Positions 14,279 through 33,053 of a DNA stretch of 64,000 nt are shown here, piece after piece (the stretch's first letter is position 1; each line of letters starts with the position of its first letter). The notes beneath the pieces were generated by a model, which worked only from the letters and a program-made list of their open reading frames with translations, did not search any database and was not told the origin of the DNA. Origin of the DNA: Calothrix sp. NIES-2100 (GTDB taxonomy: Bacteria; Cyanobacteriota; Cyanobacteriia; Cyanobacteriales; Nostocaceae). The stretch covers positions 5,337,286 to 5,401,285 of the forward strand of contig AP018178.1 of the NCBI GenBank assembly GCA_002368195.1. The letters are read 5' to 3'. The position numbers and the translations under genes are program-made.

Positions 14279-16096
14279 ATGGTTCGTATTCTGCTAGTAG
14301 ATGAGCAAAAACGCCTTAGAAAATACTTGCACGCTCTATTAGATCCAGATTGTGATTTAGAGGTAATCGCCACGATTCAAAAAGGTAAGAGTGCGATTGA
14401 GCAAGTAGCTAGTTTACAGCCTGATATAGTCCTAATAGACATAGATACACTTGGCATAGATGGGGTGCAAGCCACCAAGACAATCTGTCAGCGATTTCCG
14501 CAGATCAAAGTTCTCGTGTTGAGCAGTAACGATCGAGATGAATATATCCATCAAGCCTTGGATGCAGGGGCGATAGGCTATCTGATCAAAAATGTATGTG
14601 CTGAGGAATTACGAGAGACAATTCGCTTTTTTTGTCAAGATTCTATTAAGTTGGAACATAAACTTCCACAACAATCTAATCTAAAAATTCCAGTATCAAC
14701 TTCAGTATCTGCAAACTCGGTCTTTAAAGAATCTGGCTTGAAAATTCCTGTAGTAGAGAAAGAACTTAACTTATCTGCTAATTCATCACAGTTCCAGTCA
14801 TTCAGAAAGTTCATACCGCCTCCTAGCAATCAAAAAGAAATGACTAGTCTATCAAATCAACCATCCCCTAAACAAATTAGCTGGTATCAATTACTCACAT
14901 TACTCATGATTGCTGTTGGTTGTACCACTGGTATTTATCTTCTTCGCCAGGCACTGAGGAAGCCGCTGCCATCATTGAACTACATACAACAACAGTCAAC
15001 ACTGATGGGCACAGAATTTAGCGGTAAAGTTAAGCCAGCTAAAATAGTGAAAATAGCTGCATCTATCCCTTCAGTAGTTGAAAAAATTAATGTGCAAATT
15101 GGCGATAAAGTTAATCTGGATCAACCCCTCATAGTTCTCAAAAACCCTGAGAGTGACAGAGAAATTGAACAAATTTTGCAGCAACGCCAAAATCTCCTAC
15201 AACAAGAACAAGCAGTACTTCAACAACAGCAAACTGCTAAACAAAAAGTTTTAATCTGGGAGCAGAAAATTACCGACATTAATCGTCAGGAAACGCCACT
15301 AGCTGCGAAAATAGCTGATGCAGATTTGGAGTTATCTTTAACTCAGAGTGAAGCTGATAAACTACCTTTACCCCAAAGACAGGATTCAGTGGAAAGAACT
15401 AAAGCAATTTACGAAAGAGCTGAATCAAGAGTACGCCGATTTGCACAACTTTATCAACAGGGTGCGATCGCCCAAGATCAATTGGAGCAAGCACAAGCAG
15501 ATCTCAAAGTTGCTAAAGCAGATTATCAAGTAGCTGAAACTGCTGCTGCTACCGCAAACAATCTAGAACTTGCCAAAAAACAAAAGTCTCAGTTACAACG
15601 TCAGGTATCCTTAGAACAACAAAAACTCAAGCGCCAAGAACTAGAGCAACAGTTACAAAATTTGCGCTTAGAGTCTCAACAAGCAACTGAACGATTAAAA
15701 TTAATCCGTGAACAATCAACTCAGCTTTTCCAGCGTCAGATGCCATCGGGAAATACTATAGTGAAGGCGACAAGTGCGGGAGTAGTAGTGCAAGTACCAG
15801 TGAAAATCGGCGATCAAATCTTCACTGGTAACCCCCTGCTAGAATTAGCCCAACTCAAGTCCCTCAACGTTGAAGTATTGGTTAATGCTCGGCTAATTAA
15901 CGCTCTGCGTCAAGGTCAAAAAGCCACCATTAAAGTAGGTATAGGAAAAACTGCTCAGAAGTTTGAGGGAAAAATCGTCACGATTAATCCCATACCCTCT
16001 GAGAACATGAATCACACTGTTGAGATCCAGTTTGAAAATCCTGATGATGCTTTACTAGTGGGGCAAATGGCAGCTATCCAGTTTTTACCAGATTAA
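14279..16096 (+). CDS. Response-regulator receiver (REC) domain fused to an HlyD-family membrane-fusion/periplasmic adaptor protein, 605 aa.
   Basis: N-terminus MVRILLVDEQ...DIVLIDIDTLGIDG...VLVLSSNDRDEYI...GYLIKN matches a CheY-like receiver. This is followed by a TM helix, a biotin-lipoyl-like segment (VEKINVQIGDKVNLDQPLIVL), a long Q-rich coiled coil and a C-terminal beta-barrel (VKIGDQIFTGNPLLEL). Confidence 0.8.
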   Translation: MVRILLVDEQKRLRKYLHALLDPDCDLEVIATIQKGKSAIEQVASLQPDIVLIDIDTLGIDGVQATKTICQRFPQIKVLVLSSNDRDEYIHQALDAGAIGYLIKNVCAEELRETIRFFCQDSIKLEHKLPQQSNLKIPVSTSVSANSVFKESGLKIPVVEKELNLSANSSQFQSFRKFIPPPSNQKEMTSLSNQPSPKQISWYQLLTLLMIAVGCTTGIYLLRQALRKPLPSLNYIQQQSTLMGTEFSGKVKPAKIVKIAASIPSVVEKINVQIGDKVNLDQPLIVLKNPESDREIEQILQQRQNLLQQEQAVLQQQQTAKQKVLIWEQKITDINRQETPLAAKIADADLELSLTQSEADKLPLPQRQDSVERTKAIYERAESRVRRFAQLYQQGAIAQDQLEQAQADLKVAKADYQVAETAAATANNLELAKKQKSQLQRQVSLEQQKLKRQELEQQLQNLRLESQQATERLKLIREQSTQLFQRQMPSGNTIVKATSAGVVVQVPVKIGDQIFTGNPLLELAQLKSLNVEVLVNARLINALRQGQKATIKVGIGKTAQKFEGKIVTINPIPSENMNHTVEIQFENPDDALLVGQMAAIQFLPD

Positions 16097-16102
16097 TTTT
16101 TC

Positions 16103-17623
16103 ATGAAGAGACTATCTGTATTATTGACTACGGAAGGGACTTATCCCTACCATAAGGGCGGTGTAAGTACCTGGTGTGATGTTTTAACCAGCCAACTTCC
16201 AGAGGTAGATTTTCATGTGTTGGCGATCGCGGCTAATCCTTACCTAGAGTTACGCTATAAATTACCCAATAATGTCAAGCAACTGGTGAAAGTGCCCTTG
16301 TGGGGAACAGAAGACCCTGTAGAATACTCTTGGCGCTTCCCCTTTTCTCAGGCATTTAAAAGCAAAATAGAAACCACAAACAGGGTAATTGCAACTCAGT
16401 TTATCCCTTTATTTGAGGGTTTTTTAACAGCCATCCTCTTGCACGAACCAGATATCGAGCAGTTGGCCCACCTCATACTGGCAATTTATAAATATTTTCA
16501 GCGTTATGACTACCACAAGACAATGGAGTCGAAACTGGTATGGTCAACTTTTCAACGTTTAACCGCTACTCATTGGCATCCGTTAGTTAATCCTAATGCC
16601 GTCAAACTCATAGAACAGACGGAAGCCATGCGCTTACTCTATCGGTTTCTCATTCCCATTCATATCCCTGTTCCTAAAACCGATATCACCCATGCCTCAT
16701 CTGCTGGTTTTTGTGGCTTACCCTGTGTTATTGCCAAGTTAGAAAGAGGTACTCCTTATCTGCTCACAGAGCATGGTATCAATATTCGAGAGCAGTATTT
16801 AAATTTAAATCGCAGTATTCCCTCCCTATTTGTGCGTCAATTCTTATATCGATTAATGGGGGCGGTAGTTAAAGTCAACTATCACTACGCCGATCAAATT
16901 TCTCCTGTTTGTGAATACAATGCTCGTTGGGAACGTTGGTGGGGGATACCTGACCATAAAATCAAGGTGATTTACAACGGAGCCGATCCAAATATCTATC
17001 ATCCTACCCCAACCGTCGCTAAAGAACGACCTCAAGTCATGAACATGGGCTTGATTTTTCCTCTCAAAGGACAACTAGATTTGATCGCCGCAGCCGCTAT
17101 TGTCCGAGAGAAAATCCCCAATGTGGAATTTCGCTTTTATGGTCGTCCTTCCGATGAAAAATATTTTGCTCAATGTCAAGAATTAGTTCGCACCCATAAT
17201 TTAGAAGCAAATATCAACTTTGCCGGATTTACTAGCGAGCCTTGGCGAGCTTACAGTGAGGCAGATGTAGTGGCTATGTCGAGTATTTCTGAGGGCTTCC
17301 CTTATGCTCTCATTGAAGCCATGCTTTCCGGGGCTACCATTGTTTCTACGGATGTCGGCGGTGTCAGCGAAGCTTTAGGTGATACCGGATTACTCGTACC
17401 AGCCCATCGTCCTCAAGCCCTAGCTGCGGCGATTTTGCAGCTTCTAGAGTTACCCGAAACTGATAGGCGGAAATTTGGCCAGTTAGCCCATGAACGCGCC
17501 CTCAAGTTATTTACTCAGCAAAAATTCTTAGATGCACACATGGATAGTTATTACAACCTCATGAAACAAGTAAAAACAGACACAACTTCTATGAAAGAGT
17601 TGGCGATCGCATCTTCTAAGTAG
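16103..17623 (+). CDS. GT4-family glycosyltransferase with DUF3492-like N-terminal domain (PelF-like architecture), 506 aa.
   Basis: The C-terminal EGFPYALIEAMLSGATIVSTDVGG is the GT4/Glycos_transf_1 E-x7-E region. About 280 aa of non-GT N-terminal domain precede it, as in PelF-type enzymes. The gene starts 7 bp after the HlyD-fusion stop. Confidence 0.75.
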   Translation: MKRLSVLLTTEGTYPYHKGGVSTWCDVLTSQLPEVDFHVLAIAANPYLELRYKLPNNVKQLVKVPLWGTEDPVEYSWRFPFSQAFKSKIETTNRVIATQFIPLFEGFLTAILLHEPDIEQLAHLILAIYKYFQRYDYHKTMESKLVWSTFQRLTATHWHPLVNPNAVKLIEQTEAMRLLYRFLIPIHIPVPKTDITHASSAGFCGLPCVIAKLERGTPYLLTEHGINIREQYLNLNRSIPSLFVRQFLYRLMGAVVKVNYHYADQISPVCEYNARWERWWGIPDHKIKVIYNGADPNIYHPTPTVAKERPQVMNMGLIFPLKGQLDLIAAAAIVREKIPNVEFRFYGRPSDEKYFAQCQELVRTHNLEANINFAGFTSEPWRAYSEADVVAMSSISEGFPYALIEAMLSGATIVSTDVGGVSEALGDTGLLVPAHRPQALAAAILQLLELPETDRRKFGQLAHERALKLFTQQKFLDAHMDSYYNLMKQVKTDTTSMKELAIASSK

Positions 17624-17857: not shown

Positions 17858-18706
17858 ATGAATCTTTATTTCAAAACAACACGCAAATTGATTATGAGTG
17901 GTTTATTGACAGCAACACTTGCTTGTAGTAATGGGATTAAGCCAGAAACTGCCACGGCTCAAACTAAAATTCTCATCCCTCTTTATTCCTATCCTACCTG
18001 GTACAATCCCGAAGCTTATACTTGGCCGAAAATAGCTGCGGCTGCAAGTCAAGTCCCGATTACTGCCATTATTAATCCCAATAATGGCCCCAATAATGGC
18101 CCACCAAACAGAGATTATGCCAGAGGTATTCAAGACCTCAAACAAGGGGGTGTAACAATCCTGGGTTATGTGGCTACGAATTACGGCAAACGCGACATCT
18201 CTCAAGTCAAAGCTGATATTGATATCTACGCTAAGCATTTTCATCTTGATGGGATTTTCTTAGATGAAGCCGCCAGTGGGGCAGACAAGCTCAACTACTA
18301 CCAGGAAATTTACAAACACATTAAAACTCAGCCCCAACTGAAAATGGTTGTACTCAACCAAGGTACTCAAACCGATCAAGGATATCTGACTCGACCAGCA
18401 GGGGATAACCTAGTCATTTTTGAAAATTATTCAACTGCTTGGAATCAATACCAGCCTCAGACCTATGTCAAAAATTACGAGTCTGGGCATTTTTCCTGTT
18501 TAATTCACACCGTTCCTGATGTTGCCACAATGAAACAACATATTAATCAGGCTGTGGCACGCAATATCCAATATATCTACATCACAGATGATAGCCCTGA
18601 TAATCCCGACAAAGATCCTTGGAACAGCTTACCCTCTTACTGGCAAGAGGAAGTAAATCATATCCGGTCTTTAAATCAAAAAGTTCAGAGGTCTTCAGGA
18701 AGCTGA
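17858..18706 (+). CDS. Spherulation-specific family 4 (spherulin-4-like, Sph3/GH135-like) protein with signal peptide or lipoprotein signal, 282 aa.
   Basis: ILIPLYSYPTWYNPEAYTWP..., GYVATNYGKRDISQVKADIDIYAKHFHLDGIFLDEAASG and the overall length match the spherulin-4 family pattern as recalled from memory. N-terminus LTATLACSNG. Confidence 0.6.
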   Translation: MNLYFKTTRKLIMSGLLTATLACSNGIKPETATAQTKILIPLYSYPTWYNPEAYTWPKIAAAASQVPITAIINPNNGPNNGPPNRDYARGIQDLKQGGVTILGYVATNYGKRDISQVKADIDIYAKHFHLDGIFLDEAASGADKLNYYQEIYKHIKTQPQLKMVVLNQGTQTDQGYLTRPAGDNLVIFENYSTAWNQYQPQTYVKNYESGHFSCLIHTVPDVATMKQHINQAVARNIQYIYITDDSPDNPDKDPWNSLPSYWQEEVNHIRSLNQKVQRSSGS

Positions 18707-20487
18707 ACTTGATAGATTCTCAAGTCATTATCTTCATAATAGATAGCCACCTCCTGTTCATGGAGGTGACGATAAGTCTCACACATCTGCAATGCTGTAA
18801 ATTGTAAGCTGGCACGACCTGCCGATGAGCGATAGTTACGATAGGTAGGGTCAGATAAAACAGAGTAGGGAAGCATTTGGCTTTCACTCAGTCCTGTAAC
18901 CAAGGGTCGTTTTTCGACAAAGATAAACAGATTTGGTACTGAATAACGGAAGTGAAAATCAGGTTTGCTGACTTTAGATCCATACTTCTCCACAAATAAC
19001 CCCAGATCCTCATACCAGCCAGCACCATAACTTTCTGCTAGTTGTTCAATGGGGGCGACAATCACCCAGCGCTTGATGGGGAATCTAACTCGTAGTTCTA
19101 GGGTTTTACGCGCAGCCATTTCATATTCGAGATAGCTGAGTTTCGGAGAAAGTGGCAACAAAAAGTTAATTGCGATCGCCAACATCAAAATCACGCAGAT
19201 AATCTCAGACCATAAACCTAATATCAGACTCAGCAACCAGCTGCTGGGGATTAACACCAGTCCCCAAAGCCAGCTTAGTCCTACAGGTAGTGTGACTAAA
19301 AAAGTGCTTTCCCATCCCAAGGGATTTTCCGGGAAAGCAAAGCCTAAAGCCAATATTATCCAACTAATAGTAACTACAGTTAGTGCTAATCTCCCTCCAC
19401 CAATGAAGCTGATTCCGCCGATGAATGCCAGAATCAGCAACGTTGGTTTAATAATTGCCACGATCGTTAAGCAGCAAACTGCATCAATCAACGCTTCTCG
19501 ACGATATTTACTTTTAGAAGCTTCCCAACCTCGTCCTAAACCTAAAACCAAAAACATAACTCCAATTTCTAAGTTATCCCCTGCCCATTGGCGGATTAAG
19601 GAGGAATTCAAACTTTGAGTTACTGTTGTTAGCCATTGCTGTAACCAAATCGGAGCAAATTCAGGAATATGTCGATGGGAAGTGAACAGATAAGCCCCTA
19701 AGCTACACATCGCACCAATAGCAGCTGTTTTATGCTGAGAAATCACACCGATACCATAGCCGACACTTAGCACCAATAGACAGCCTAAGAGGGGCCCCAG
19801 GAAGCGGATCACCTGCATGGCATCAATCGCACCCAACAGCGATAAGACGCTAGCTAAAGTAGAGAAGGCGGGAAAAGAGTGAATCTGTCCTGGCCAATCC
19901 CCTGCTATGAGTTGCCTGGTAGCCAGCAGAATACTATAACTATCTGGATTTCCCAAACGCAGTTCCTGCAAAGGATGCTCAAATCGCAGTAATACAGCAA
20001 ACGTCAGGATAACAGTGAGTAGCAGAACCTCCAGTATTGTTTGTGAGAAGGCGATCGCGATTACTTGCTGAGCGATCGCCAGTTGTTTTTTTCCCGCCTG
20101 CCAACTTCTATCAACAACCTGAAGAATTTTTGGTAAAAAGCCTTGATCTAGAGCATCTAACACAGCAAATCCTACCCTGTGGCATATCAGATTCAACTGC
20201 TTTTTAACACGCCAATCATGCTGTTGCAGCCAGGGTAGAAGCAAACAACCGCTATATAAAAGTACTAGAGTAAACCAGCTAAACAAATGCAAGGCACTCA
20301 ACAACCAAACCCCTATGAAAGTGACTAGCAACATTCGCGCCCAGCCACTTACTATTCGACTTGGCCAAGGCATTGTTTTCGGAAAAGTAAAAATTACGCT
20401 GGGCAGCCAGATAAACACAATGACAAGCACTATGGCTACCCATATAGTAGTGAGCAAATCAAAAATAAAGGTTTGCAGAACTAACAC
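18685..20487 (-). CDS. Polytopic membrane protein (at least 12 predicted TM helices) with about 150-aa soluble C-terminal domain, 600 aa. Function unknown.
   Basis: Long hydrophobic segments throughout. The 3' end overlaps the convergent spherulin-like gene by 22 bp. No recognisable catalytic motif. Confidence 0.55.
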   Translation of the reverse strand: MLVLQTFIFDLLTTIWVAIVLVIVFIWLPSVIFTFPKTMPWPSRIVSGWARMLLVTFIGVWLLSALHLFSWFTLVLLYSGCLLLPWLQQHDWRVKKQLNLICHRVGFAVLDALDQGFLPKILQVVDRSWQAGKKQLAIAQQVIAIAFSQTILEVLLLTVILTFAVLLRFEHPLQELRLGNPDSYSILLATRQLIAGDWPGQIHSFPAFSTLASVLSLLGAIDAMQVIRFLGPLLGCLLVLSVGYGIGVISQHKTAAIGAMCSLGAYLFTSHRHIPEFAPIWLQQWLTTVTQSLNSSLIRQWAGDNLEIGVMFLVLGLGRGWEASKSKYRREALIDAVCCLTIVAIIKPTLLILAFIGGISFIGGGRLALTVVTISWIILALGFAFPENPLGWESTFLVTLPVGLSWLWGLVLIPSSWLLSLILGLWSEIICVILMLAIAINFLLPLSPKLSYLEYEMAARKTLELRVRFPIKRWVIVAPIEQLAESYGAGWYEDLGLFVEKYGSKVSKPDFHFRYSVPNLFIFVEKRPLVTGLSESQMLPYSVLSDPTYRNYRSSAGRASLQFTALQMCETYRHLHEQEVAIYYEDNDLRIYQVQLPEDL

Positions 20488-21395
20488 AATAATTTACATT
20501 AATATCTCTTAGTCAATCAAAACTCAGCTAGCAGCAACTGTCAATTCAAGGGTTCTAGATATACACATTAAGGCTACTCTTGCAACCTTGATAATTGTAA
20601 ATTTAGTACACAATAGCGGAAATAAAGCCATCCCTCACAATGGCGCGAACATCTGATATGGTGAGCTTTTTGAATTCCGCACACCAGTACTAGGTTTTAA
20701 CCCCCAAGCTTATTTAAACATGGTAATTACCTATTCAAAGTTATTTTATCATTTTAAAATGAGGAACATATGAAGAAAGTAAAATTAGTGTTTTTACTTG
20801 TTTTAACCGAGACTTTATAGATAGTTTATTGATTCTTTATAGAAAGTGTAATATGTTGAAAACGGTAGTTTTTATTACATAAAATTTAGCTATTTATTGT
20901 AAACAGTCTGAAATAATACCAATAATTAACAAAAGATTTAAAAAAATGCAGTTTTATGTCAAAAAAATAAACTTGCACAATCTGGTTAAAAAACAGATCA
21001 GTAAATTTATCGAGGTGTAGTAACATCATATTTGCATTATGAATAAAACAACGAAAATTTATGTACTGGAAAATTTACCAAGAATTTATTTTTTAATAAG
21101 TATTTACGTAAGACAATATGGTTCAGATGCTCATCAGGTTGATTATGAATAAATAAGTTAGTTAATTTGAAAAGTATCCTAAAAATTCGCCAATACCATC
21201 TCTAAAAATAGATTTTCAATTCTCAAAAAAATCTAACGATTGAAACGTATTGGTTGAACATCTAAAGTTTCAACATCATTTCAGGATAGAGGGTGATTAG
21301 TTTCACTTCTAGCCAACTTTTTGATGTATACATGCTGAAAAATTTATTTTTTGAGGCAGACAAAAAAATTTCATTATCATTTAGGGAGAAAAAGA

Positions 21396-22606
21396 TGGCT
21401 AAAAAAATATTAGTAACCGGAGGAGCAGGTTATATTGGCTCCCATACAATCCGTCAATTAGGAGAAGCTGGCTATGATGTAGTGGTTTATGACAACCTCT
21501 CTACAGGTTCAGCAGCATCAGTAATTTATGGTGAACTAATTATTGGTAGTCTCGACGATAAAAATTTATTATCTCAAACATTTAGTCAACACAAATTTGA
21601 TGCAGTTTTGCATTTTGCAGCTCATCTATCTGTACCAGAGTCAGTAGTAAAACCTCTTGATTACTATACAAATAATACTTGTAATACCCTGAATTTATTG
21701 CATTGTTGTCAATTATTTGATGTAAAAAAAATAATTTTTTCTAGTACAGCTGCGGTTTATGGTCAACCTGAGGAATATCCCGTAACAGAGTTATCACCGA
21801 CCAAACCCATGAATCCCTATGGTCGTTCCAAGCTGATGAGCGAACAAATTATCCAAGACTTTGCGCAAGCATCTGGATTAAAATACGTGATTTTACGTTA
21901 CTTTAATGTCGCTGGAGCAGATACTACAGGAAAGTTAGGTCAGTCTGCCAAGAAAGCAGAACACTTAATTAAAGTGGCTTGTGATGCAGCTTTAGGTCGT
22001 CGTCCCTGTGTGAATATCTTTGGAACAGACTTTCCCACCGCAGATGGAACGGGAATTAGAGATTACATCCATGTGGAAGATTTAGCTACAGCCCATGTTG
22101 ATGCGTTGCAGTATCTCGAAGCAGGAAATGACAGTCAAATATTCAACTGTGGTTATGGTCAAGGCTATAGCGTGCGGGAAGTCTTAAAGATGGTGCAGAA
22201 AATCTCTGGAGTAGACTTTCCTGTAATTGAAAACCAACGACGAGCAGGAGATCCGGCTTGTGTTGTAGCCAGCGCTGATAAAATTCGCACCATATTAGGT
22301 TGGGAACCCAAATACAACAATTTAGAAACCATTGTCTCTACAGCTTTAAACTGGGAGAAAAAATTAATTGCTTTGGCCACATTAGAAAAACAGCTAGCAC
22401 AACAGAATTTCCGGCTAGGTGCTCTATTGCTAGAAAACAAAATTATTTCATCGACCGAATTAGAACGAGCTTTACACGAGCAATTAGTCACTAAGCAGAA
22501 ATTAGGGGAAATATTGGTGCATAAGTCAATTATTTCCACTCAAATGCTGGAAAAATTTTTGTTAGAGCAAACTTGGAGAAAACAAGGCATTTGGTTGCAA
22601 GTGTAA
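21396..22606 (+). CDS. galE: UDP-hexose 4-epimerase (GalE/SDR family) fused to a C-terminal T2SSE_N/MshEN-like domain with two tandem c-di-GMP-binding-type motifs.
   Basis: Start chosen at MAKKILVTGGAGYIGSH (Rossmann GxxGxxG) with GGAGAAAAAG 6 bp upstream. The track ORF begins 103 bp earlier with no RBS. YxxxK epimerase core. The C-terminus has RLGALLLENKIISSTELERALHEQ and KLGEILVHKSIISTQMLEKFLLEQ (22412..22560), which fit the RLGxxLLxxGxIxxxxLxxALxxQ MshEN motif. Confidence 0.8.
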
Positions 22607-22829: not shown

Positions 22830-25800
22830 ATGAGTAATGATCTGTTGATAATCGACCTCGAAGAGGTATTAAAAAGAGCAATAAATAACATTAGCGAATT
22901 CTTTACATCTGCTGAGTATGCGCAGAAAATGAATTTAGCATTTGGAGAAAAGTGGGATCAAGAGAAAGCCAAGAAGGTAATTGCGGGAATCATCAACAAT
23001 ACAAACCTCCCAGAAATTCAAGTAGTTGACTCTTTAGAAATAAATGGTGGACAAGGAGCTTTTGGGAGTTTTAACCAGACAATTTATTTATCAAAAGCGC
23101 TTTTAAATGATGCAGTCAAAAGTGTTGATGTCCTGATAGAAGAACTAGGGCATTTTATAGATTCGCAGATAAATATTCAAGATGCACAGGGCGATGAAGG
23201 AGCAATTTTTGCCGCAATCGTCCAAGGTAAAGAGCTAACTCAAACTCAACTCTTAGGGTTGAAAAGTGAGAACGATACAACAAATGTCATCATCAATGGA
23301 GAAGCCAGAACATTAGAGCTAGCAGCTACCTACGGTAATATTAGCCTCGATGGTAACTTAAGTGATTGGACATCAGCAGAGAGATTAGATTTTCTTCCTG
23401 GAACAGGAATACCAGGATACGAAATCTATGGAAAGTATGCAGGAGATGCTTATGTATTCGCCTTGAAATCGGATACCCAAGCGATAGGTGCGGGCACAAC
23501 ATTCTGGCTAAATACAGACAGAAATGCGAGTACAGGTTATCAAATATTTGGTCAGACTGGAGTAGGAGGAGCCGAATATAACGTTGATTTCTTTACAGAT
23601 AATGTACCCTCTTTATACACAGGAGGAGCCGGAGCCAATTTGGTCGGTGGTTCTTTAAACTATGCCTATGGTACTAATAATCAAATAGTTGAATTCGCCG
23701 TTCCAATAGCACTTTTAAATGGAGCGCCACAAGCAATTGATGTTTTGACGGATATTAATAACCAAACATTTTTACCGTCTAATTATTCATCTCAAAAATA
23801 TACGGTTTCTGTTTTACCACCAAGAACAGACTTTAGTAAGAAGGTTGGGATAGTATTTTCGGAAACTACAGCGAAAAATTTCTTTCAAGATAAAGCCTAT
23901 ACCCAACTCTTCCTGTCGATGCAAAGCCAAGCAATGCAGGCGGGTATTCCCTTTGATATTCTCACAGAGAATGACTTAACAGACCTCAGCAAGGTTGTTA
24001 ATTATGATGCGCTGATATTTCCTTCTTTCCGAAATGTACCTCTGGCGAAGCTGGATGCAATTCAAAATACACTCACACAAGCCGTCTACAAATATAATAT
24101 TGGACTGATTACAGCTGGAGACTTTTTAACTAACGATGAAAATAATAATGCTTTAGCCGGAGATTCCTACATCCGGATGAAGCAGTTGTTGAATGTGACT
24201 AGAACTGGTGGCGGTGGGCCAGTCAATGGTGTTCTCAACGCTGAGGATATTGCTCATCCAGTGATGCAAGGTTATTCTACGGACGAGGCGATTCGTAGTT
24301 ATAACGGCATCTTTTTTAATAGCTATGGTGATGCAGATAGTACAGACAATAAAACACCCATAGTTCTCGCAGATTTTTTGGTAAATGGGCAGAAAAATAA
24401 TGCTGTACTAGCAACACAAACCGGTGGTAGAAACGTCCATTTTGCCACTGAAGGGTTCATGGGAGATAACAATTTACTGTGGAAAGCATTGCAATGGGCT
24501 GTTCTTGATAACAAACCCAAAGTAGCGTTAAACATGAGCCGGGATGCAAGTATATTTGTTTCGCGGACTGATATGGATCAGTCTCAGGAAGCTGAGGATG
24601 TGAATCCGGTGGGAACTACTCCAGGGATTTACGATCGCCTGCTGCCGACTCTGACACAATGGAAAAACGACTATAATTTTGTCGGGTCATACTACATCAA
24701 TGTGGGTAACAATCCAGCAAATGGGCAAGTGACTGACTGGACTGTCTCCAAGCCTTACTATAATCAAATCCTGGCTCTACAAAACGAAATTGGTACCCAC
24801 TCTTATACTCACCCCGAAGACACAAATCAGAACACCTATAAAGAAAATAATGCGTCGGCTCCTATAACTCCCACTCTCACTGATGCACAATATGCTACTA
24901 AGTTGGAGTTTGAATTTAACCAATCACAATTAGTCATTGAGCAACAGTTAGGAATTCAAGTTTCAGGCGCAGCGATTCCCGGCGCACCAGAAGGTTTAGG
25001 AGTTTCCCAAGAGCTTCAGAAATACCTATCCTATGTTTCTGGTGGTTATGCAAGTGTAGGTGCAGGTTATCCCAGTGCTTTTGGCTTTATGTTTCCGGGT
25101 AAGGATTATGTCTATTTAGCCCCGAACATGTCCTTTGATTTTTCGCTGGTAGAGTTTCGCAAGTTAACAACACAGCAAGCGGAAGCAGAATGGCTTAAAG
25201 AATATACTGGTTTAACCAATCATGCAGCCCAAGCTATCATTCATTTTCCTTGGCATGATTATGGCCCTACAGCGTGGGATACTAGTCCAGAGGATAATCT
25301 ACCCTCGCCTTACAATCAGGCAATGTTTACTAATTTCCTTGCCAGAGCATACAAGGATAATACAGAGTTTATTACCGCGTTAGATTTAAGCGATCGCATC
25401 AGAACTTTTGAGAAATCACAATTAACTATTGATTATCCCAGTGCAAATACTATTACTGCTACTGTTGCAGGAGTTACTAATGTAGGGACTTTTGGTTTAA
25501 ATATCGATCCAACTCAAACCATTAAAAGTGTGAATGGTTGGTATGCCTACGATAAAGATACGGTATTCTTACCAGCTAATGGCGGTCAATTTACAATCAA
25601 TTTGGGAACTCTTCAAGATGATGTGACCCATATTACTGACCTACCAATGCGTGGCGAATTGAAGTCTGTTATCGGTAATGGCACTGATTTAGAATTTACA
25701 TTCTTTGGTGAGGGTAAAGTTGTCTTAGATTTAAAAAATCCCACTGGATTGAATATTGTCACTCAAGGTGCAAGTAGTACGACTCTCAACGGTGAGATTC

Positions 25801-27092
25801 TCGAGATGAATTTTAGCGGTCTGAGTCTACACACTGGCAAAGTGACATTAGCTCCAGATACTCCCCCAACAGTAGCTAACCCAATTGCCGATGTCAGCGT
25901 ACTTGAGGATGCAGCAGATACTGTAATTAATTTAAGTAATGTCTTCACAGATATTGATAACGCTGTTACTGGCATTACTAAGACAGTTAAAGCTAATAGC
26001 AATAGTGGCTTAGTTAATGCCAGCATTGTTAACAATAATCTGACTCTGGATTATCTACCGAATCAATTTGGGACTGCGACAATTACTATTACTGGTACAT
26101 CTAATGGCAAAACTGTTGATGATACCTTTACAGTCAACGTTGCGCCTGTGGATGATGCGCCGACTGTGGTTACTCCAATTGCTGATGTTATTGTTAATCA
26201 AGGTTCTGCTAACACTAATATTAATTTAGGTAGTGTCTTTACTGATATAGATAACGATGCTGCGGCGATTACTAAGTCAATTGTCACCAATAGCAATAAC
26301 ACCTTGGTGAATGCCTCAATTGTGGGTAATTCTTTAACCTTGCAATATTTACCCAATCAATTTGGTAATGCGCAAGTGACTGTGCGTGGTACATCTGGCG
26401 GTAAAACAGTTGATGATACTTTTAGTGTCACTGTTAACCCTGTGGGCAATATCATTAATGGTACTGCTGCAAACAACTCTCTTTTAGGTACTTCAGGTAG
26501 AGATATCATTAGCGGATTTGGTGGTAATGACACCATAGATCCTAGAGAGGGTAATGATGTTGTTTATGGTGGCGATGGTAACGATTATGTTTTGGGAAGT
26601 TTAGGGGATGATTTAATTTATGGGGACGCTGGTAACGATACGTTATTCGGTGGCTCAAATAACGATACCCTTACTGGTGGTAAAAATAGTGACCGATTAG
26701 TTGGTGACTCAGGAATTGACACTCTGATTGGTGTCAACCCCAATGATACTTTAGCTGGAGCAGGAGAAATTGATACCTTAACTGGTGGTACTCAAGCTGA
26801 TTTATTTGTTCTCGGTGATAGAACTAAGGCTTACTACAATGATGGTAATAATCTTAGCTCTGGCACGGGTGACTATGCTCTAATTACAGACTTCAGTACC
26901 TTTGAGGGAGATAAAATCCAACTTTTTGGTAGCGCCGCCAACTATAGAATCAATAATCTTTCATTTAGTTTATCATTGGGCTTCCATAGCGCGCTTTACT
27001 TAAGAACTGGCGGTCAGGATGAGCTAATAGGAGCGATTCAAGGATTTAATAGCCTGAGTCTTACTAGTAGCAGTTTCAGCTATGTGAGCTAA
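22830..27092 (+). CDS. Giant secreted multidomain protein, paralogue 1 (1420 aa). Conserved N-terminal module, NodB-like metal-dependent deacetylase/esterase motif, Ig/FN-like segment, 2 cadherin-like (DDAP-type) repeats, RTX nonapeptide Ca-binding repeats, conserved C-terminal domain.
   Basis: [12 protein letters not shown] (H-S-x-x-H NodB motif 2). Repeats [18 protein letters not shown]...[13 protein letters not shown]. GGxGNDxLxG-type repeats GFGGNDTIDPREGNDVVYGGDGNDYVLG. No N-terminal signal peptide (T1SS-type substrate expected). Confidence 0.8.
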   Translation: MSNDLLIIDLEEVLKRAINNISEFFTSAEYAQKMNLAFGEKWDQEKAKKVIAGIINNTNLPEIQVVDSLEINGGQGAFGSFNQTIYLSKALLNDAVKSVDVLIEELGHFIDSQINIQDAQGDEGAIFAAIVQGKELTQTQLLGLKSENDTTNVIINGEARTLELAATYGNISLDGNLSDWTSAERLDFLPGTGIPGYEIYGKYAGDAYVFALKSDTQAIGAGTTFWLNTDRNASTGYQIFGQTGVGGAEYNVDFFTDNVPSLYTGGAGANLVGGSLNYAYGTNNQIVEFAVPIALLNGAPQAIDVLTDINNQTFLPSNYSSQKYTVSVLPPRTDFSKKVGIVFSETTAKNFFQDKAYTQLFLSMQSQAMQAGIPFDILTENDLTDLSKVVNYDALIFPSFRNVPLAKLDAIQNTLTQAVYKYNIGLITAGDFLTNDENNNALAGDSYIRMKQLLNVTRTGGGGPVNGVLNAEDIAHPVMQGYSTDEAIRSYNGIFFNSYGDADSTDNKTPIVLADFLVNGQKNNAVLATQTGGRNVHFATEGFMGDNNLLWKALQWAVLDNKPKVALNMSRDASIFVSRTDMDQSQEAEDVNPVGTTPGIYDRLLPTLTQWKNDYNFVGSYYINVGNNPANGQVTDWTVSKPYYNQILALQNEIGTHSYTHPEDTNQNTYKENNASAPITPTLTDAQYATKLEFEFNQSQLVIEQQLGIQVSGAAIPGAPEGLGVSQELQKYLSYVSGGYASVGAGYPSAFGFMFPGKDYVYLAPNMSFDFSLVEFRKLTTQQAEAEWLKEYTGLTNHAAQAIIHFPWHDYGPTAWDTSPEDNLPSPYNQAMFTNFLARAYKDNTEFITALDLSDRIRTFEKSQLTIDYPSANTITATVAGVTNVGTFGLNIDPTQTIKSVNGWYAYDKDTVFLPANGGQFTINLGTLQDDVTHITDLPMRGELKSVIGNGTDLEFTFFGEGKVVLDLKNPTGLNIVTQGASSTTLNGEILEMNFSGLSLHTGKVTLAPDTPPTVANPIADVSVLEDAADTVINLSNVFTDIDNAVTGITKTVKANSNSGLVNASIVNNNLTLDYLPNQFGTATITITGTSNGKTVDDTFTVNVAPVDDAPTVVTPIADVIVNQGSANTNINLGSVFTDIDNDAAAITKSIVTNSNNTLVNASIVGNSLTLQYLPNQFGNAQVTVRGTSGGKTVDDTFSVTVNPVGNIINGTAANNSLLGTSGRDIISGFGGNDTIDPREGNDVVYGGDGNDYVLGSLGDDLIYGDAGNDTLFGGSNNDTLTGGKNSDRLVGDSGIDTLIGVNPNDTLAGAGEIDTLTGGTQADLFVLGDRTKAYYNDGNNLSSGTGDYALITDFSTFEGDKIQLFGSAANYRINNLSFSLSLGFHSALYLRTGGQDELIGAIQGFNSLSLTSSSFSYVS

Positions 27093-27347: not shown

Positions 27348-30300
27348 ATGAATAATAGTCTGTTAATGCCTAATGTTGAAGAATTGCTAAAAAGAGCAAT
27401 AAATAACATCAGTGAATTCTTTACCTCTCCAGATTATGCTGAAAAGATGAATTTAGCATTTGGAGAGAAATGGGATGAAACAAAAGCTAAGAATGTAATT
27501 CAAGGATTAATAACCTATACAAACATCCCCGAAATTAAAATAGTTGAATCCTTAGAAATTAATGGAGGACAAGGTGCTTATGGCAGTGTTAAGCAAACGA
27601 TTTATTTATCGACAGCAATTTTAAATGACCCAGTCAAAAGTGTTGATGTCCTGATAGAAGAACTAGGGCATTTTATAGATTCGCAGATAAATATTCAAGA
27701 TGCTCAGGGCGATGAAGGAGCAATTTTTGCCGCAATAGTCCAAGGTAAAGAGCTAACGCCAACACAACTGGTAGGGTTGAAAAGTGAGAATGATACAACT
27801 AATGTCATCATCAATGGACAAGCCAGAACATTAGAGTTAGCCGCTACATACGGTAATATTACCCTCGATGGCAACTTAAGTGATTGGACATCAGCAGATA
27901 GATTAGATGATCTTCCTGGGACAAGAGTACCAGGATACGAACTCTATGGAAAGTACGCAGGTGATGCTTATGTTTTCGCCTTTAAATCGAATAGCGAACA
28001 GATAGGTGCGGGCGCAACATTATGGCTAAATACAGATAGAAATTCGCTCACAGGCTATCAAATATTTGGTTTAACGGGAATTGGGGGAGCAGAATATAAC
28101 GTCAACTTTTTTAGTGATGATAAACCCTATCTTTATACAGGTGCAGACGGAGAAAATTTTGTCACAGGTCCCTTAGACTATGGCTATGGTACGAATAATC
28201 AAATAGTCGAATTCGCCGTGCCCATATCTCTGCTCAATGGAGCGCCACAAGCAATTGATGTGGTAGTCGATATTAATAATGACACATTTTTACCATCTGA
28301 TTATTCTACGCAAAAATATACGGTTTATGCCACACCACCAGTTTTACCACCAAGGACAGATTTTAGTAAAAAGGTAGGCATAGTATTTTCGGAAACAACA
28401 GCGAAAAACTTCTTTCAAGATAAAGCGTATACCCAACTGTTCATGTCGATGCAAAGCCAAGCGATGCAGGCGGGTATACCCTTTGATATCCTCACGGAAG
28501 ATGACTTAACTGATATCAATAAAGTTGTCAATTATGATGCGCTAATCTTTCCCTACTTCGCAAATGTGCCTCTGGCGAAACTAGATGCTATTGAAAATAC
28601 ACTCACACATGCAGTGTATAACTATAACATCGGGATTATTACCGCCGGAGATTTCTTAACTAACGATGAAAATAATAATGCTTTAGCCGGAGATTCCTAC
28701 ATCCGGATGAAGCAGTTGTTGAATGTGACTAGAATTGGTGGTAGCCCCGAAAATATACTTGTAAATGGCATTCTCAACACTGAAGATATTACTCATCCAG
28801 TGATGAAAGGCTACTCTACTGATGAGGTAATTCGTACTTACAACAATATCACTTTTAATAGTTATGGTGATGCTGACCCTATAGATGATAAAGCACCTAT
28901 AGTTCTTGCAGATTTTGAGGTAAATGGGGAGAAGAACAATGCTGTTTTAGCGACGCAAACCGGAGGCAGAAATGTCCACTTTAGCACTCCGGGATTCATG
29001 GCTGATAACAATTTAGTCTGGCAAGCATTGCAATGGGCTGTTTTAGATAACAAACCCAAAGTGGCTTTAAACATGAGTCGGGATGAGAGTATTTTTATCT
29101 CTCGCAATGACATGGATCAGTCTCAGGAATATGCTGATGTTAATCCTTCAGGAACCACTCCAGGGATTTACGATAAACTGCTTCCCATCCTGACGCAATG
29201 GAAAAATGACTATAATTTTGTCGGCTCATACTATATTAATGTCGGTAACAATCCCGCAAATGAGCAATTTACTGATTGGAATATTTCCAAGCCTTACTAT
29301 GAGCAAATGCTGGCTCTGCAAAATGAAATTGGTACCCATTCTTATACTCACCCAGAATTTACTGATCAATTAACTGCTGCGCAATTGGAGTTTGAATTCA
29401 ACCAATCGAAATTAGTTATTGAGCAACAGTTAGGAATTCAAGTCAAAGGTGCAGCGATTCCCGGAAACCCAGAAGGTTTAGGAGTTTCCCAAGAACTTCA
29501 GAAATATTTATCTTATGTTTCTGGTGGATATGCCAGTGTGGGTGCAGGTTATCCCAATGCTTTTGGGTTTATGTTTCCGGGTAGTGATTATGTCTATTTT
29601 GCCCCGAACATGTCCTTCGACTTTTCCCTGGTGGAATTTCGCAAGTTAACACCACAACTAGCCGAAGCCGAATGGCTTAAAGAGTACACTGGGTTAACCA
29701 ATCATGCATCCCAAGCCATCATCCATTTTCCTTGGCATGATTATGCTCCGACAGTCTGGGATACAGATCCAGAGGATAACATCCCTTCGCCTTACACTCA
29801 GGCAATGTTTACTAATTTTATTGCCAGAGCGTACAACGATAATACGGAGTTTGTCACCGTTGCTGATTTGAGCGATCGCATCAAAACTTTTGAGAAATCA
29901 CAATTAACTCTCGATTATCCTAGTACAAATACTATTACTGCTACTGTTGCAGGAGTTACTGATGTAGGCACTTTTGGTCTGAATATTGATCCGACTCAAA
30001 CAATCCAGAGTGTCAATAACTGGTATGCTTACGATAAAGATACGGTATTTTTACCAGCTAATGGCGGTCAATTTACGATCAATTTGGGAACTCTTCAAGA
30101 TGATGTGACCCATATTATTGACCTACCCATGCGTGGCGAATTGAAGTCTGTTCTTGGGGATGGTACAGATTTAGAATTTACATTTTTTGGTGAGGGTAAA
30201 GTTGTCTTAGATTTAAAAAATCCTACTGGATTGAATATTGCTACTCAAGGTGCAAGTAATACGACTCTCAACGGTGAGATTCTTGAGATGAATTTTAGCG

Positions 30301-32801
30301 GTGTGAGTCTACATACTGGTAAAGTGACATTAGCTCCGGATACTCCCCCTACAGTAGCTAACCCAATTGCCGATGTCAGCGTACTTGAGGATGCCGCAAA
30401 TACTGTTATTAATTTAAGTAATGTCTTCACGGATATTGATAATGATCCTAGTGCAATTATCAAGACGATTCCAGCTAACAGCAACAGTAGTTTGGTTAAT
30501 GCCAGTATTGTTAACAATGAGTTGATTCTGGCTTATTTACCTAATCAATTTGGTACGGCAGAAATTACTATTAGCGGTACATCTCATGGCAAAACTGTTG
30601 ATAATACCTTTACAGTTAACGTTACTGCTGTGGATGATGCACCTATAGTAGCCAACCCTATCACAGATGTGAATAGTAGCGAAGATGCGCCTAACACTAT
30701 TATTGATTTAAGCCAGGTCTTCACTGACATTGATAACGATCCTATTGCAATTATCAAGACGCTTCAGGCTAACAGCAATAGTAGTTTAGTTAATGCGAGT
30801 ATTGATGGTAATAACTTAGTTCTGGCTTATTTACCTAATCAATTTGGTACGGCGGCAATTACCATTAGCGGTACATCTAATGGCAAAACTGTTGATCATA
30901 CCTTTACAGTTAATGTTGCTCCTGTGGATGATGCACCTACAGTAGCCAACCCTATTGTGGATGTGAATAGTAGTGAAGATGCACCTAACACCATTATTGA
31001 TTTAAGCCAGGTCTTCACTGATATTGATAATGATCCTAGTGCAATTATCAAGACGCTTTCAGCTAATAGCAACAGTAGTTTAGTTAATGCCAGCATTGTT
31101 AATAATGCCTTGATTTTTGCTTATCAACCTAACCAATTTGGGACGGCGGCAATTACTATTAATGGCATATCCAACGGCAAAACCGTCGATAATACCTTTA
31201 CAGTTAACGTTGTGCCTGTAGATGATGCGCCGATTGTGGTTACTCCAATTGCCGATATTTTTGTTAATCAAGGTTCTGCTAACACAATTATTAATTTAGG
31301 CAGTGTCTTTACTGATATTGATAATGATCCGACTGCCATCACTAAGGCGGTTGTGACTAATAGCAATAACACCTTGGTTAATGCCAGTATTGTGGGTAAT
31401 TCTTTAACACTGCAATATTTACCCAATCAGTTTGGTACTGCACAAGTTACTGTTCGTGGTAATTCTAACGATTTAACTGTTGATGATACTTTTAGTGTGA
31501 CTGTCAATCCCGTGGGTAATATCATTAACGGTACGGATGCAAACAACATCATTGCAGGTACTTCAGCTAGAGATATCATTAGCGGATTTGGCGGTGACGA
31601 TAGCATTGATGGGAAAGCGGGAAATGATGTGATTTATGCTGGTGATGGCAACGATACTCTGATTGGTGGTACTGGCAATGATAGTCTCTATGGTGGAGTT
31701 GGCAACGATAAGTATACGGTGGATAGTTTAGGAGATGTAATCATTGAAAACATCAATTCAGGCATAGATACCGTTAGTGCCTCAATTAGCTACACTTTGG
31801 CAGATAACGTTGAAAATCTCACCTTAACTGGTACATCAGCTATCAACGGTATCGGTAACAATCTTAATAACATCCTCACTGGGAACGCTGGTAATAACAT
31901 CCTCACTGGAAACGCTGGCAATGATAGCCTCAACGGTGGTGCTGGCGATGATATCCTGAATGGCGATGATGGCGACGATAGTTTGATTGGTGGCACTGGT
32001 AATGATACTCTCTACGGTGGAGTTGGCAACGATAGCTATACAGTGGATAGTATAGGAGATGCGATCGCTGAAAACGTTAATTCAGGCATAGATACCGTTA
32101 GTGCCTCAATTAGCTACACTTTGACAGATAACGTTGAAAATCTCACTTTAACAGGTACATTAGCTACTGAGGGTATAGGTAATAATCTCAACAATAATAT
32201 TACTGGGAACGCTGCTAATAACATCCTCACTGGGAACGCTGGCAATGACATCCTCACTGGGAACGCTGGCGATGATATCCTGAATGGTGGTGATGGCGAT
32301 GATCAACTCAAGGCTGGCGTGGGTAACGATATACTCTATGGTGATATCGGTAACGATCTGCTAGATGGTGGTGACAATAATGATACTTTGTACGCTGGTC
32401 GAGGTAATGATAGTGTCTTGGGTGGTAAGGGTATCGATACTCTCATTGGTGTAAACCCCAACGATATCTTGGCAGGAGCAGGAGAGATTGATACCTTAAC
32501 TGGTGGTACAGAGGCTGATTTATTTATTCTAGGCGATCGCAATCAGGCTTACTACAATGATGGAAATAATGCCAACCTAGGGTTAGGTGATTATGCGCTG
32601 ATTACTGACTTCCGTATTGCTCAAGGAGATAAGATCCAACTCTTTGGCAATTCTAGTAACTATTTCTTAGGTGCTTCCCCAACTGGCTTACCTACAGGTA
32701 GAGCAATTTTCCTGAAAACTTCTAATCAAAATGAATTGATTGCAATTGTTCAAGGAGATACTAGTGTGACTGCTATTACTAGCGGCTTGAGCTTTGTTTA
32801 A
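27348..32801 (+). CDS. Giant secreted multidomain protein, paralogue 2 (1817 aa). Same architecture with 5 cadherin-like repeats and an expanded, internally duplicated RTX region.
   Basis: Near-identical to paralogue 1 over the first ~1000 aa (identical stretches such as gaaaataataatgctttagccggagattcctacatccggatgaagcagttgttgaatgtgactagaa in both). Five ~95-aa DDAP repeats 30340..31500. Duplicated block YTVDS(L/I)GD...[14 protein letters not shown](A/T)[11 protein letters not shown]. Confidence 0.8.
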
Positions 32802-32861: not shown

Positions 32862-33053
32862 CCACTAAAACAAAGTTGCACACAAGCTAGCAATTGCACC
32901 GATCGCAGTCAGCAGCGAAAATCAAGATTTTGCAATTGTATACCTACCCAAAAACATTTGGGATTTCTCTGAATCAACCGTAGTTTACTGTGTTATTAAA
33001 TATTGCACAGTAGTTATTTTTTTTACTTTATATGTTTTAAAAGTGAAATTATT

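Follow-up and report, generated by a model that had tools for sequence, protein, structure and literature searches.

What does a sugar-nucleotide epimerase gain from a tail that resembles a receptor for cyclic di-GMP (c-di-GMP)? The question is raised by one gene of the cyanobacterium Calothrix sp. NIES-2100, located in a stretch of 64,000 nucleotides (contig AP018178.1, positions 5,337,286 to 5,401,285 of the forward strand) that we call the window. An initial annotation, made from the sequence alone, had described its product as a GalE-type uridine diphosphate (UDP)-hexose 4-epimerase fused to two MshEN-like c-di-GMP-binding motifs. Our results support this architecture. Judged by its sequence, the enzyme half is a catalytically intact GalE. 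The tail, apart from its missing turn glycines, agrees with the 53-residue c-di-GMP site of MshE and PilF in sequence, spacing, contact residues and predicted fold. Our overall reading, to which we assign a probability of about 0.6, is that the protein would be a cluster-dedicated UDP-hexose or UDP-N-acetylhexosamine 4-epimerase, coupling c-di-GMP to a hexosamine polysaccharide similar to Pel or galactosaminogalactan (GAG).

An epimerase with an MshEN_N tail

The open reading frame (ORF) listing and the raw sequence agree on a single unbroken reading frame of 403 amino acids (aa) plus stop. The initial annotation had placed it at 21396–22606. The ORF itself stands, but its start is one base off: the ATG lies at position 21395, and the frame read from 21396 contains 38 stops. 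This is the first ATG with a purine-rich stretch (AGGGAGAAAAAG) ahead of it, and the start position is common to all aligned homologues. The product begins with MAKKILVTGGAGYIGSH, and an identical 403-aa protein is annotated on the public contig.

For comparison within the family we aligned fused homologues (n = 31); alignment A1 has 35 rows, and alignment A2 contains 27 fusion tails. The assignment of the enzyme half to GalE is borne out. It scores 476 bits against the GalE equivalog model TIGR01179 (cut-off 262.3; aa 4–324) and matches Pfam Epimerase with an E-value of 2.9e-59. The nicotinamide adenine dinucleotide (NAD) motif GGAGYIGS (GxxGxxG; aa 9–16) is invariant in the fusion family (A1), as are the catalytic residues T118 and Y142-x3-K146 of the Ser/Thr-Tyr-Lys triad. 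We take these residues to be the counterparts of S124, Y149 and K153 in E. coli GalE. The E. coli and human GalE sequences used for this comparison have the right lengths and a self-consistent landmark numbering. V290 aligns to the gatekeeper position, Y299 in E. coli and C307 in human GalE (alignment A3). The bulky Tyr of E. coli GalE blocks N-acetylated substrates, whereas the fusion protein has Val. Judged from V290, from the neighbouring genes, with GlmS, GlmM and YvcK in related clusters, and from the likeness to a bifunctional C. jejuni epimerase (see below), the physiological reaction is probably the conversion of UDP-N-acetylglucosamine (UDP-GlcNAc) to UDP-N-acetylgalactosamine (UDP-GalNAc), with UDP-Glc to UDP-Gal possible as well. 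On balance, we favour the N-acetylated pair as the relevant substrate.

An AlphaFold2 (AF2) model of the full-length protein, based on the 35-sequence alignment, had a mean predicted local distance difference test score (pLDDT) of 91 and a predicted template modelling score (pTM) of 0.89. Foldseek matched this model to Nostoc GalE All4713 (8wxk; root-mean-square deviation (rmsd) 1.3 Å over 325 columns, target-normalised TM 0.95, 50% identity). The bifunctional UDP-Glc/GlcNAc 4-epimerase of C. jejuni (7k3p) is also 50% identical. No solved structure covering both GalE and tail was found in this search of the PDB, where the matches to the full model are GalE only, over ~325 columns.

The two 24-residue segments quoted in the initial annotation occur verbatim, at aa 340–363 and aa 369–392. 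The NCBIfam model NF053729 ('cyclic di-GMP-binding domain-containing protein, MshE-related'; cut-off 38) scored 51.7 bits (E = 5.6e-14) with the whole protein and 55.9 bits with the tail alone, and all 53 model positions were matched at aa 340–392. A phmmer search of the PDB returned PilF of Thermus thermophilus (GSPII-B; E = 3.4e-9 for the whole chain) and MshE of Vibrio cholerae (5htl; E = 3.7e-5). The alignment to the MshE N-domain, which had been proposed as a check, is gap-free over residues 8–61. The match of the tail to the MshE-type motif is well beyond chance, and the claim of a near position-by-position correspondence is upheld with the turn glycines as the exception. Weaker matches link the tail to the NfrB model over its MshEN region (NF008411, E = 4.9e-6), to the MshEN region of the PilB model and to DUF4388 (PF14332). 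The spacer between the motifs has the same length as in MshE, and its sequence is not conserved. In every fusion tail where the pattern scan located both motifs, their offsets are 29 residues apart, and the alignment keeps this spacing too.

Residue by residue, R340, L341, G342, L356, L360 and Q363 align to MshE R9, L10, G11, L25, L29 and Q32, while K369, L370, G371, L385, L389 and Q392 align to R38, L39, G40, L54, L58 and Q61. In MshE, the Arg stacks on the ligand, the Leu residues form two triangles, the guanine is recognised by the backbone amide of a Gly, and ribose and phosphate are contacted by the Gln (PMC5013675). The conserved R/L/G/Q positions are indeed the c-di-GMP contacts. Within the family, L341, G342, L356, L360 and Q363 of motif I are present in at least 90% of A1 and are invariant in A2. 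In motif II, G371, L374, L385, L389 and Q392 are invariant and K369 nearly so. The mean column identity of the 27 tails is 46%, and their sole invariant columns are L2, G3, L17, L21 and Q24 of motif I and G3, L6, L17, L21 and Q24 of motif II. L6 of motif II is a hydrophobic-core position, and the other invariant columns are published contact residues, the mutation of which cuts binding more than 10-fold or abolishes it (PMC5013675). Ten of the 12 contact positions are thus invariant or nearly so. The other two, position 1 of motif I (R340) and position 2 of motif II (L370), show conservative variation. The first of them can be R, K, Q, P or V in the family; changes of Arg9 in MshE alter the affinity less than 5-fold (PMC5013675), and the c-di-GMP-binding PilF has a wild-type Lys (K167) at motif position 1.

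The initial annotation had also expected an alignment to Pfam T2SSE_N (PF05157), and here it failed: there was no match at E ≤ 10. We judge PF05157 to be the wrong test, because it mainly models the MshEN_C/T2SSE_N1 subdomain, which is absent from the tail. The Pfam model starts inside a single motif and runs into MshEN_C/T2SSE_N1 (Wang 2016, supplement alignment). The protein ends 11 residues after motif II and does not match PF05157, and therefore the tail is MshEN_N only and not a member of T2SSE_N. MshEN_N alone suffices for binding, since MshE 1–65 binds c-di-GMP with a dissociation constant of 0.35 μM (Wang et al., 2016).

In the AF2 model, a 27-residue helix (aa 310–336) prolongs the last GalE helix into the tail, which folds into four helices (341–347, 353–366, 370–376 and 382–397). 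A model of the tail alone had a pLDDT of 88. Its 11 best PDB matches were all c-di-GMP-bound MshE or PilF GSPII-B structures, with an rmsd of 0.7–2.3 Å (0.7–1.4 Å for the best seven), including 5htl (0.7 Å over 54 columns) and 8pfa (1.0 Å over 53 columns), each with a probability of 1.0. The four-helix fold is predicted to be unchanged despite the missing turn glycines. Sequence and model together make it likely that the tail binds c-di-GMP.

Behind motif II, the protein ends with a short cap that is kept in most fused homologues. The same cap ends MshEN_N modules attached to WecG-type glycosyltransferases and to FHA domains, as well as stand-alone MshEN_N pairs. Its occurrence on such unlike partners points to a shared, partner-independent function, as far as the sequences indicate. 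In the tandem MshEN_N subfamily the cap has the consensus EQ[YHF]WR[RKQ]xG[FLYV]W; Wang et al. (2016) do not mention it. Capped modules occur in fusions to WecG/TagA-type glycosyltransferases (P0147, P0178, P0160, P0249), in FHA fusions (P0205, P0213, P0221, P0228, P0271) and in stand-alone form (P0135, P0145, P0163, P0168, P0194). Several of the capped proteins are labelled DUF4388 (PF14332) by Pfam.

Distribution and gene neighbourhood

The database search yielded full-length homologues of 397–425 aa with 97–100% query coverage, in at least 42 clusters at 90% identity. All named fusion homologues are cyanobacterial, from Tolypothrix, Calothrix, Pleurocapsa PCC 7327, Lyngbya PCC 8106 and Planktothrix, and the fusion is conserved over several cyanobacterial orders. 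Database annotation describes these proteins as plain GalE throughout. A homologue search with the tail only returned just two fragments. With a profile of the C-terminal 123 aa, the matches were limited to short or partial proteins, so that full-length fusions could not be enumerated that way, and a scan of genome contigs with a single tail sequence returned one fused locus only. An exhaustive profile search found 14,617 MshEN_N proteins, with one GalE fragment among the best 150; in that search, plain GalE cluster representatives probably stood in for the full-length fusions. The NCBIfam motif model could allow automated pipelines to flag the tail. Two Clostridium matches with long apparent coverage (L016, L017) were rejected as fusions outside the cyanobacteria, as they are ordinary galK-galE-galT operons, and a fusion beyond the cyanobacteria thus finds no support.

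In a metagenome-assembled genome (MAG) of Desmonostoc geniculatum (L006 145..516; P0121/P0122), the contig end cuts the fused gene, with the result that its tail has entered databases as a 59-aa 'hypothetical protein' of its own. This case illustrates how draft assemblies can hide the fusion architecture.

The same gene set surrounds the fusion in Pleurocapsa PCC 7327, Planktothrix, the Desmonostoc MAG (where the cluster is partial, at the contig end) and three metagenomic or draft genomes. The fused gene is linked to this cluster in 7 of 9 genomes. In contrast, none of the cluster genes is present at any of the eight plain cyanobacterial GalE loci (69–74% identity; Fisher p = 0.002). We regard a dedicated role of the fusion epimerase in the cluster as likely. 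The neighbourhood also narrows down the functional proposal, which we find plausible.

Table 1. Features of the fusion gene and of its surroundings in the window (positions count from the first nucleotide of the window).
Feature	Position	Strand	Evidence or remark
GalE-MshEN_N fusion protein, whole coding sequence	21395..22606	+	ORF, translation, public contig, full-length homologues
GalE domain, UDP-hexose 4-epimerase, short-chain dehydrogenase/reductase (SDR) fold, aa 1–325	21395..22369	+	TIGR01179, Pfam Epimerase, Foldseek
Linker helix, aa 310–336, conserved WEKKLIxLAxLE	22322..22402	+	AF2, pLDDT 89–95; A1 conservation
MshEN motif I, RLGALLLENKIISSTELERALHEQ, aa 340–363	22412..22483	+	aligns to MshE 9–32
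Spacer LVTKQ, aa 364–368	22484..22498	+	5 residues, as in MshE
MshEN motif II, KLGEILVHKSIISTQMLEKFLLEQ, aa 369–392	22499..22570	+	aligns to MshE 38–61
C-terminal cap TWRKQGIWLQV (consensus EQxWRxQGxWL)	22571..22603	+	kept in most fused homologues
Partial CBS-GAF-PAS-GGDEF-EAL protein, runs off the window start	1..2621	-	open minus-strand translation
REC (response-regulator receiver) fused to HlyD-type membrane-fusion protein	14279..16096	+	Pfam Response_reg, HlyD_D23/HlyD_3
PelF-type GT4 glycosyltransferase (DUF3492 + Glycos_transf_1)	16103..17623	+	NF038011, Pfam
Spherulin-4 family protein	17858..18706	+	PF12138, E 1.7e-54; conserved in cluster
600-aa multi-pass membrane protein, divergent from the fusion gene	18685..20487	-	no family match
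First of three tandem paralogous RTX giants	22830..27092	+	HemolysinCabind; C-terminal RTX repeats
Second RTX giant	27348..32801	+	HemolysinCabind, E 3.8e-41
Third RTX giant	33003..36794	+	HemolysinCabind
515-aa multi-pass membrane protein	36988..38535	+	no family match

In the window itself (Table 1), the PelF-type glycosyltransferase scores 149.9 bits against the PelF equivalog model NF038011 (cut-off 100) and is 67–72% identical to its counterparts in related clusters. The REC-HlyD gene adjoins the PelF-type gene in relatives as well. The spherulin-4 family includes the fungal galactosaminogalactan hydrolase Sph3. Of all its neighbours, the fusion gene is most constantly accompanied by the 600-aa membrane protein. 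Its homologues (40–54% identity) lie directly or closely upstream in loci L001–L005 and L022, and in L024 a 604-aa protein without a Pfam match, placed by position and not by sequence, takes the position of the 600-aa gene. A 647-aa neighbour in L021 was tried as a further homologue and rejected, because it is not homologous. The spherulin-4 and 600-aa genes are convergent, and their 3' ends overlap by 22 bp (18685..18706). This tail-to-tail overlap recurs in Planktothrix, L023 and L024 and is lacking in Pleurocapsa and L022.

Downstream of the fusion gene, other genomes have a single gene, to which the first RTX giant of the window is 56–64% identical. This single gene is the common best match of all three giants, which shows their paralogy. 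The second giant has a sub-threshold match of the CE4 type (Polysacc_deac_1, 22.4 bits against a cut-off of 23.1), and homologues in L003, L005 and L022 have weak or faint Polysacc_deac_1 matches. In L005, the neighbour of the PelF-type gene encodes a protein that shares 48% identity over 513 aa with the 515-aa membrane protein. Homologues of the latter (48–89% identity in L001–L006 and L022) follow the PelF-type gene elsewhere. For the 600-aa and the 515-aa protein, Pfam, NCBIfam and PDB sequence searches returned no match, and the two may act with the PelF-type enzyme in polymerisation or export.

Some related clusters also contain GlmM (587 bits vs. 448), GlmS (802 vs. 418) and a YvcK-type UDP-GlcNAc-binding protein (379 vs. 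196). These glmM, glmS and yvcK-type genes lie at 15545..16966 in L001, at 2705..4606 and 17640..19028 in L005 and at 16071..17483 in L022, with none in the 14–38.5 kb region of the window.

Pfam and NCBIfam models gave no PilZ, GGDEF, EAL or PelD match in the cluster proteins. A profile of the tail run against the six frames of the 64-kb window matched no other ORF, no c-di-GMP riboswitch or any other Rfam family was found in the window, and a promoter and terminator scan of the divergent intergenic region gave nothing above chance. The initial annotation had pointed to a GGDEF-EAL enzyme at 1..2621 that could supply or remove the ligand. Such a protein exists, with an intact RLGGDEF motif and the start of an EAL domain (GFEALARW). 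It is encoded on the minus strand, the plus-strand frame being full of stops. However, the window edge truncates it, and at a distance of 19 kb it falls outside the conserved cluster, so that the support it lends to the proposal is weak.

A candidate c-di-GMP input to exopolysaccharide synthesis

What might the cluster make? When compared with the Pel system (pelABCDEFG), it contains PelF by NF038011, whereas PelD, PelE/PelG, PelA and PelB/PelC had no Pfam or NCBIfam match among the cluster proteins. The places of the missing parts are taken by the two membrane proteins, the spherulin-4 protein and the RTX/deacetylase-like proteins. With PelF as the only shared component, the cluster is Pel/GAG-like and not a pel operon. 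Pel itself is a partly deacetylated α-1,4-GalNAc polymer (PMC9135694). PelX, an SDR epimerase producing UDP-GalNAc, is often encoded in Pel clusters, as exemplified by PelX/PgnE of Pseudomonas protegens, a pel-linked UDP-GlcNAc C4-epimerase (bioRxiv 10.1101/2020.05.26.111013). Like PelX, the fusion protein is an SDR epimerase encoded with a Pel-type cluster. Unlike the fusion protein, PelX lacks a receptor domain, and the c-di-GMP input of Pel systems is PelD. PelX was absent from the PDB matches of the fusion protein at E ≤ 1e-40.

A second precedent is the GAG cluster of Aspergillus (uge3, gtb3, agd3, sph3, ega3), in which a UDP-Glc/GlcNAc 4-epimerase is encoded along with a glycosyltransferase, a deacetylase and a spherulin-4 hydrolase for the production of a GalNAc-rich adhesive polymer (PMC4817252). 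The window cluster resembles it in having an epimerase, a glycosyltransferase, deacetylase-like proteins and a spherulin-4 family protein. The Aspergillus cluster differs in being eukaryotic, in having no second-messenger receptor and in using another glycosyltransferase family, and the cyanobacterial cluster adds RTX repeats, the REC-HlyD protein and two membrane proteins.

The closest parallel for the receptor on a polysaccharide enzyme is NfrB of E. coli, a glycosyltransferase that is activated by c-di-GMP binding to its MshEN domain (PMC8669469). As in the fusion protein, an MshEN-type receptor sits at the C-terminus of an exopolysaccharide enzyme. In NfrB, however, the receptor is a full MshEN with N and C subdomains on the polymerising GT2 enzyme, and the precursor epimerase WecB is separate and unregulated. 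Here it is the epimerase that carries the receptor, and the PelF-type glycosyltransferase has none. MshE of V. cholerae, PilF of T. thermophilus and PilB share with the tail the two 24-residue motifs, the 5-residue spacer, the contact residues and the four-helix bundle. Their domains are N-terminal, are followed by MshEN_C/T2SSE_N1 and regulate a secretion ATPase of type IV pili or the type II secretion system. In contrast, the fusion tail is C-terminal, lacks MshEN_C and the turn glycines, and has the additional WRxQGxWL cap. Cyanobacterial proteins with MshEN_N only have been listed before, namely cce_1044 with (MshEN_N)2, an NlpD-type MshEN_N-Peptidase_M23 protein and TrxB-MshEN_N (Wang et al., 2016). 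Like the tail, these have MshEN_N without MshEN_C; the list contains no GalE fusion. The stand-alone (MshEN_N)2 proteins share the C-terminal cap with the GalE tail.

These comparisons suggest the following mechanism. The cluster would produce a Pel/galactosaminogalactan-like exopolysaccharide that is GalNAc-rich and partly deacetylated, and the fusion epimerase would provide UDP-GalNAc, and possibly UDP-Gal, for this polymer. We propose UDP-GalNAc supply because of the precedents of Pel, PelX and GAG and because of the Val at the gatekeeper position. At high c-di-GMP, the tail would take up one c-di-GMP per module, and this binding would turn precursor supply on. Control of precursor supply by c-di-GMP is what we infer from the architecture. 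It might act by allosteric activation via the rigid linker helix, which would abut the substrate-binding domain. Alternatively, docking to the membrane synthase might bring the enzyme to the place where its product is consumed. The recruitment option gains some support because the cap is shared by modules on quite different partners. Since searches of the cluster proteins revealed no receptor of the PelD, PilZ or GGDEF type, c-di-GMP probably acts on the cluster post-translationally through this tail. The tail would in effect do the job of PelD, from the precursor enzyme. The likeness to PelD, the degenerate GGDEF receptor of the Pel synthase, would be one of role, as post-translational input of a PelF-containing system, and the two have no sequence or fold relationship.

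A more specific version of this mechanism strikes us as doubtful at present. In that version, the epimerase would be the only c-di-GMP receptor of a PelD-less Pel/GAG-like synthase that occurs in filamentous and colonial cyanobacteria. The cap would dock the c-di-GMP-loaded tail to the PelF-type glycosyltransferase and both membrane proteins, and this assembly would gate polymerisation by precursor channelling. Capped MshEN_N would then be a portable, c-di-GMP-dependent docking tag that WecG-type glycosyltransferases and FHA proteins carry as well. If true, this would be the first second-messenger control of an exopolysaccharide pathway at the nucleotide-sugar step.

Several points weigh against a cluster-dedicated, c-di-GMP-coupled epimerase. 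The consensus turn glycines (MshE G18 and G47) are replaced by K349 and S378. Position 10 of motif I is never Gly in the fused family (K/N/Q/S/H), and for lack of this turn glycine motif I fails even the relaxed published pattern. The Foldseek E-values of the 87-aa tail are no better than 0.06–0.2, which we ascribe to the small size of the domain. According to PMC12448109 (2025), c-di-GMP binding by cyanobacterial MshEN domains is still untested and few cyanobacterial targets are known. On the side of the enzyme, substrate specificity is deduced from one gatekeeper residue and the neighbouring genes, and GlmS, GlmM and YvcK are not in the window's own cluster. The term 'Pel-like' reflects PelF plus analogy, and our results do not constrain either the direction of the regulation or its mechanism, allostery or recruitment. 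Finally, two fused genes (L021, L025) lie outside the cluster. In L021, a 6.5-Mb genome, the fused GalE is directly followed by a flavin adenine dinucleotide (FAD) oxidoreductase (11299..13332) that is 85% identical to that at 44983..47046 of the window, with no rest of the cluster within 10 kb. The gene in L025 (10001..11224; P0049) encodes the most divergent fused member, with 62% identity, possibly a paralogue on its way to another function. P0049 shows substitutions around the HFAA and YYxNN stretches, which are otherwise conserved, and its gene lies near a hybrid histidine kinase and a REC-GGDEF-EAL protein.

Could the missing glycines mean that the tail is a degenerate MshEN_N-like bundle, an oligomerisation or protein-docking module without c-di-GMP binding? 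Many MshEN domains have lost binding, for example that of Xanthomonas XpsE, and a review reports Synechocystis MshEN domains without the full motif. The conserved WRxQGxWL cap also suggests an interaction surface unrelated to the ligand. Yet the turn glycines, though highly conserved, are needed for helix turns and are not ligand contacts (PMC5013675), and the bundle is predicted confidently without them. The residues that are altered in the non-binding XpsE (G11, I19, L29, R38, G40, L54, L58, Q61) are kept in the tail, with R38K as the sole and conservative change. The columns that never vary in the 27 tails are ligand contacts with one bundle-core exception, and the curated NCBIfam cut-off is passed. 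We therefore consider loss of binding rather unlikely. Sensing of another nucleotide (3'3'-cyclic GMP-AMP (cGAMP), cyclic di-AMP (c-di-AMP) or a linear dinucleotide) is much less probable still. It would fit the variable position 1 of motif I, and a figure legend in PMC5013675 indicates that V. cholerae MshEN binds cGAMP weakly. However, no c-di-AMP binding was seen for MshEN (PMC5013675), the limited effect of Arg9 changes on affinity takes weight from the variable position, and both halves of the tail keep the Leu triangles and the backbone-amide readout of guanine O6/N7 by Gly and the next residue.

It could also be that c-di-GMP is bound by a housekeeping epimerase of Leloir or galactolipid metabolism, whose position in the cluster is incidental, so that the signal tunes general UDP-galactose. 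In favour of such a role, the enzyme passes the GalE equivalog model, the general Nostoc GalE All4713 is the nearest relative with a solved structure, and two fused genes lie outside the cluster. This is hard to reconcile with the linkage in 7 of 9 genomes from different orders as against 0 of 8 plain GalE loci. Moreover, plain GalE paralogues (69–75% identity) in related cyanobacteria occupy other contexts, and there is no galK or galT nearby, unlike in the Clostridium loci. We consider a housekeeping role improbable. There remains the trivial explanation that a frameshift or an overlooked stop has joined two genes in annotation or assembly, as the separate 59-aa protein of the Desmonostoc MAG might suggest. 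The Desmonostoc case is located at a contig end, though, and the window contains one uninterrupted ORF. The same architecture recurs in the 42 or more protein clusters, from independent isolates and metagenomes with complete genomes included, and AF2 predicts one continuous helix through the junction. The chance of an artefact is negligible. A cluster-dedicated epimerase under the control of c-di-GMP is the reading we prefer.

The receptor module (MshEN_N) and the enzyme (GalE) are both of known kinds, and we did not find their combination described. The architectures of Wang et al. include Peptidase_M23, TrxB, CheX, AAA_31, REC and CheA partners and GT2 enzymes, and no epimerase (PMC5013675). 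A full-text literature search, which was not exhaustive, found no paper linking MshE-type domains with a UDP-glucose 4-epimerase. Precedents exist both for cluster-linked epimerases (PelX, Uge3) and for MshEN-regulated polysaccharide enzymes (NfrB), and the fusion extends known principles and overturns none. If our reading is true, the c-di-GMP control point of the matrix moves from the synthase (BcsA, PelD, NfrB) to the precursor enzyme. Cyanobacteria have many enzymes that make or break c-di-GMP and very few known receptors. Reviews up to 2025 name only the PilZ domain of cellulose synthase, the untested MshEN of PilB, and CdgR/ComFB as cyanobacterial c-di-GMP receptors. The fusion protein offers a concrete candidate receptor that is easy to purify and whose output, an exopolysaccharide cluster, is obvious. 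This cluster occurs in bloom-, mat- and crust-forming genera (Planktothrix, Calothrix/Tolypothrix, Pleurocapsa and Lyngbya). Our analysis also draws attention to a cluster that contains PelF and whose remaining parts resemble no Pel, Pga or GAG system described so far.

Other genes of the window

Upstream of the cluster, the plus strand encodes two AAA_35 (STAND-like) ATPases, at 7842..9239 and 10079..13636. In the latter, the ATPase is fused to about 14 WD40 repeats (1185 aa in total). Downstream, the FAD-dependent oxidoreductase at 44983..47046 (plus strand; 687 aa, PF12831) lies 22 kb from the fusion gene.

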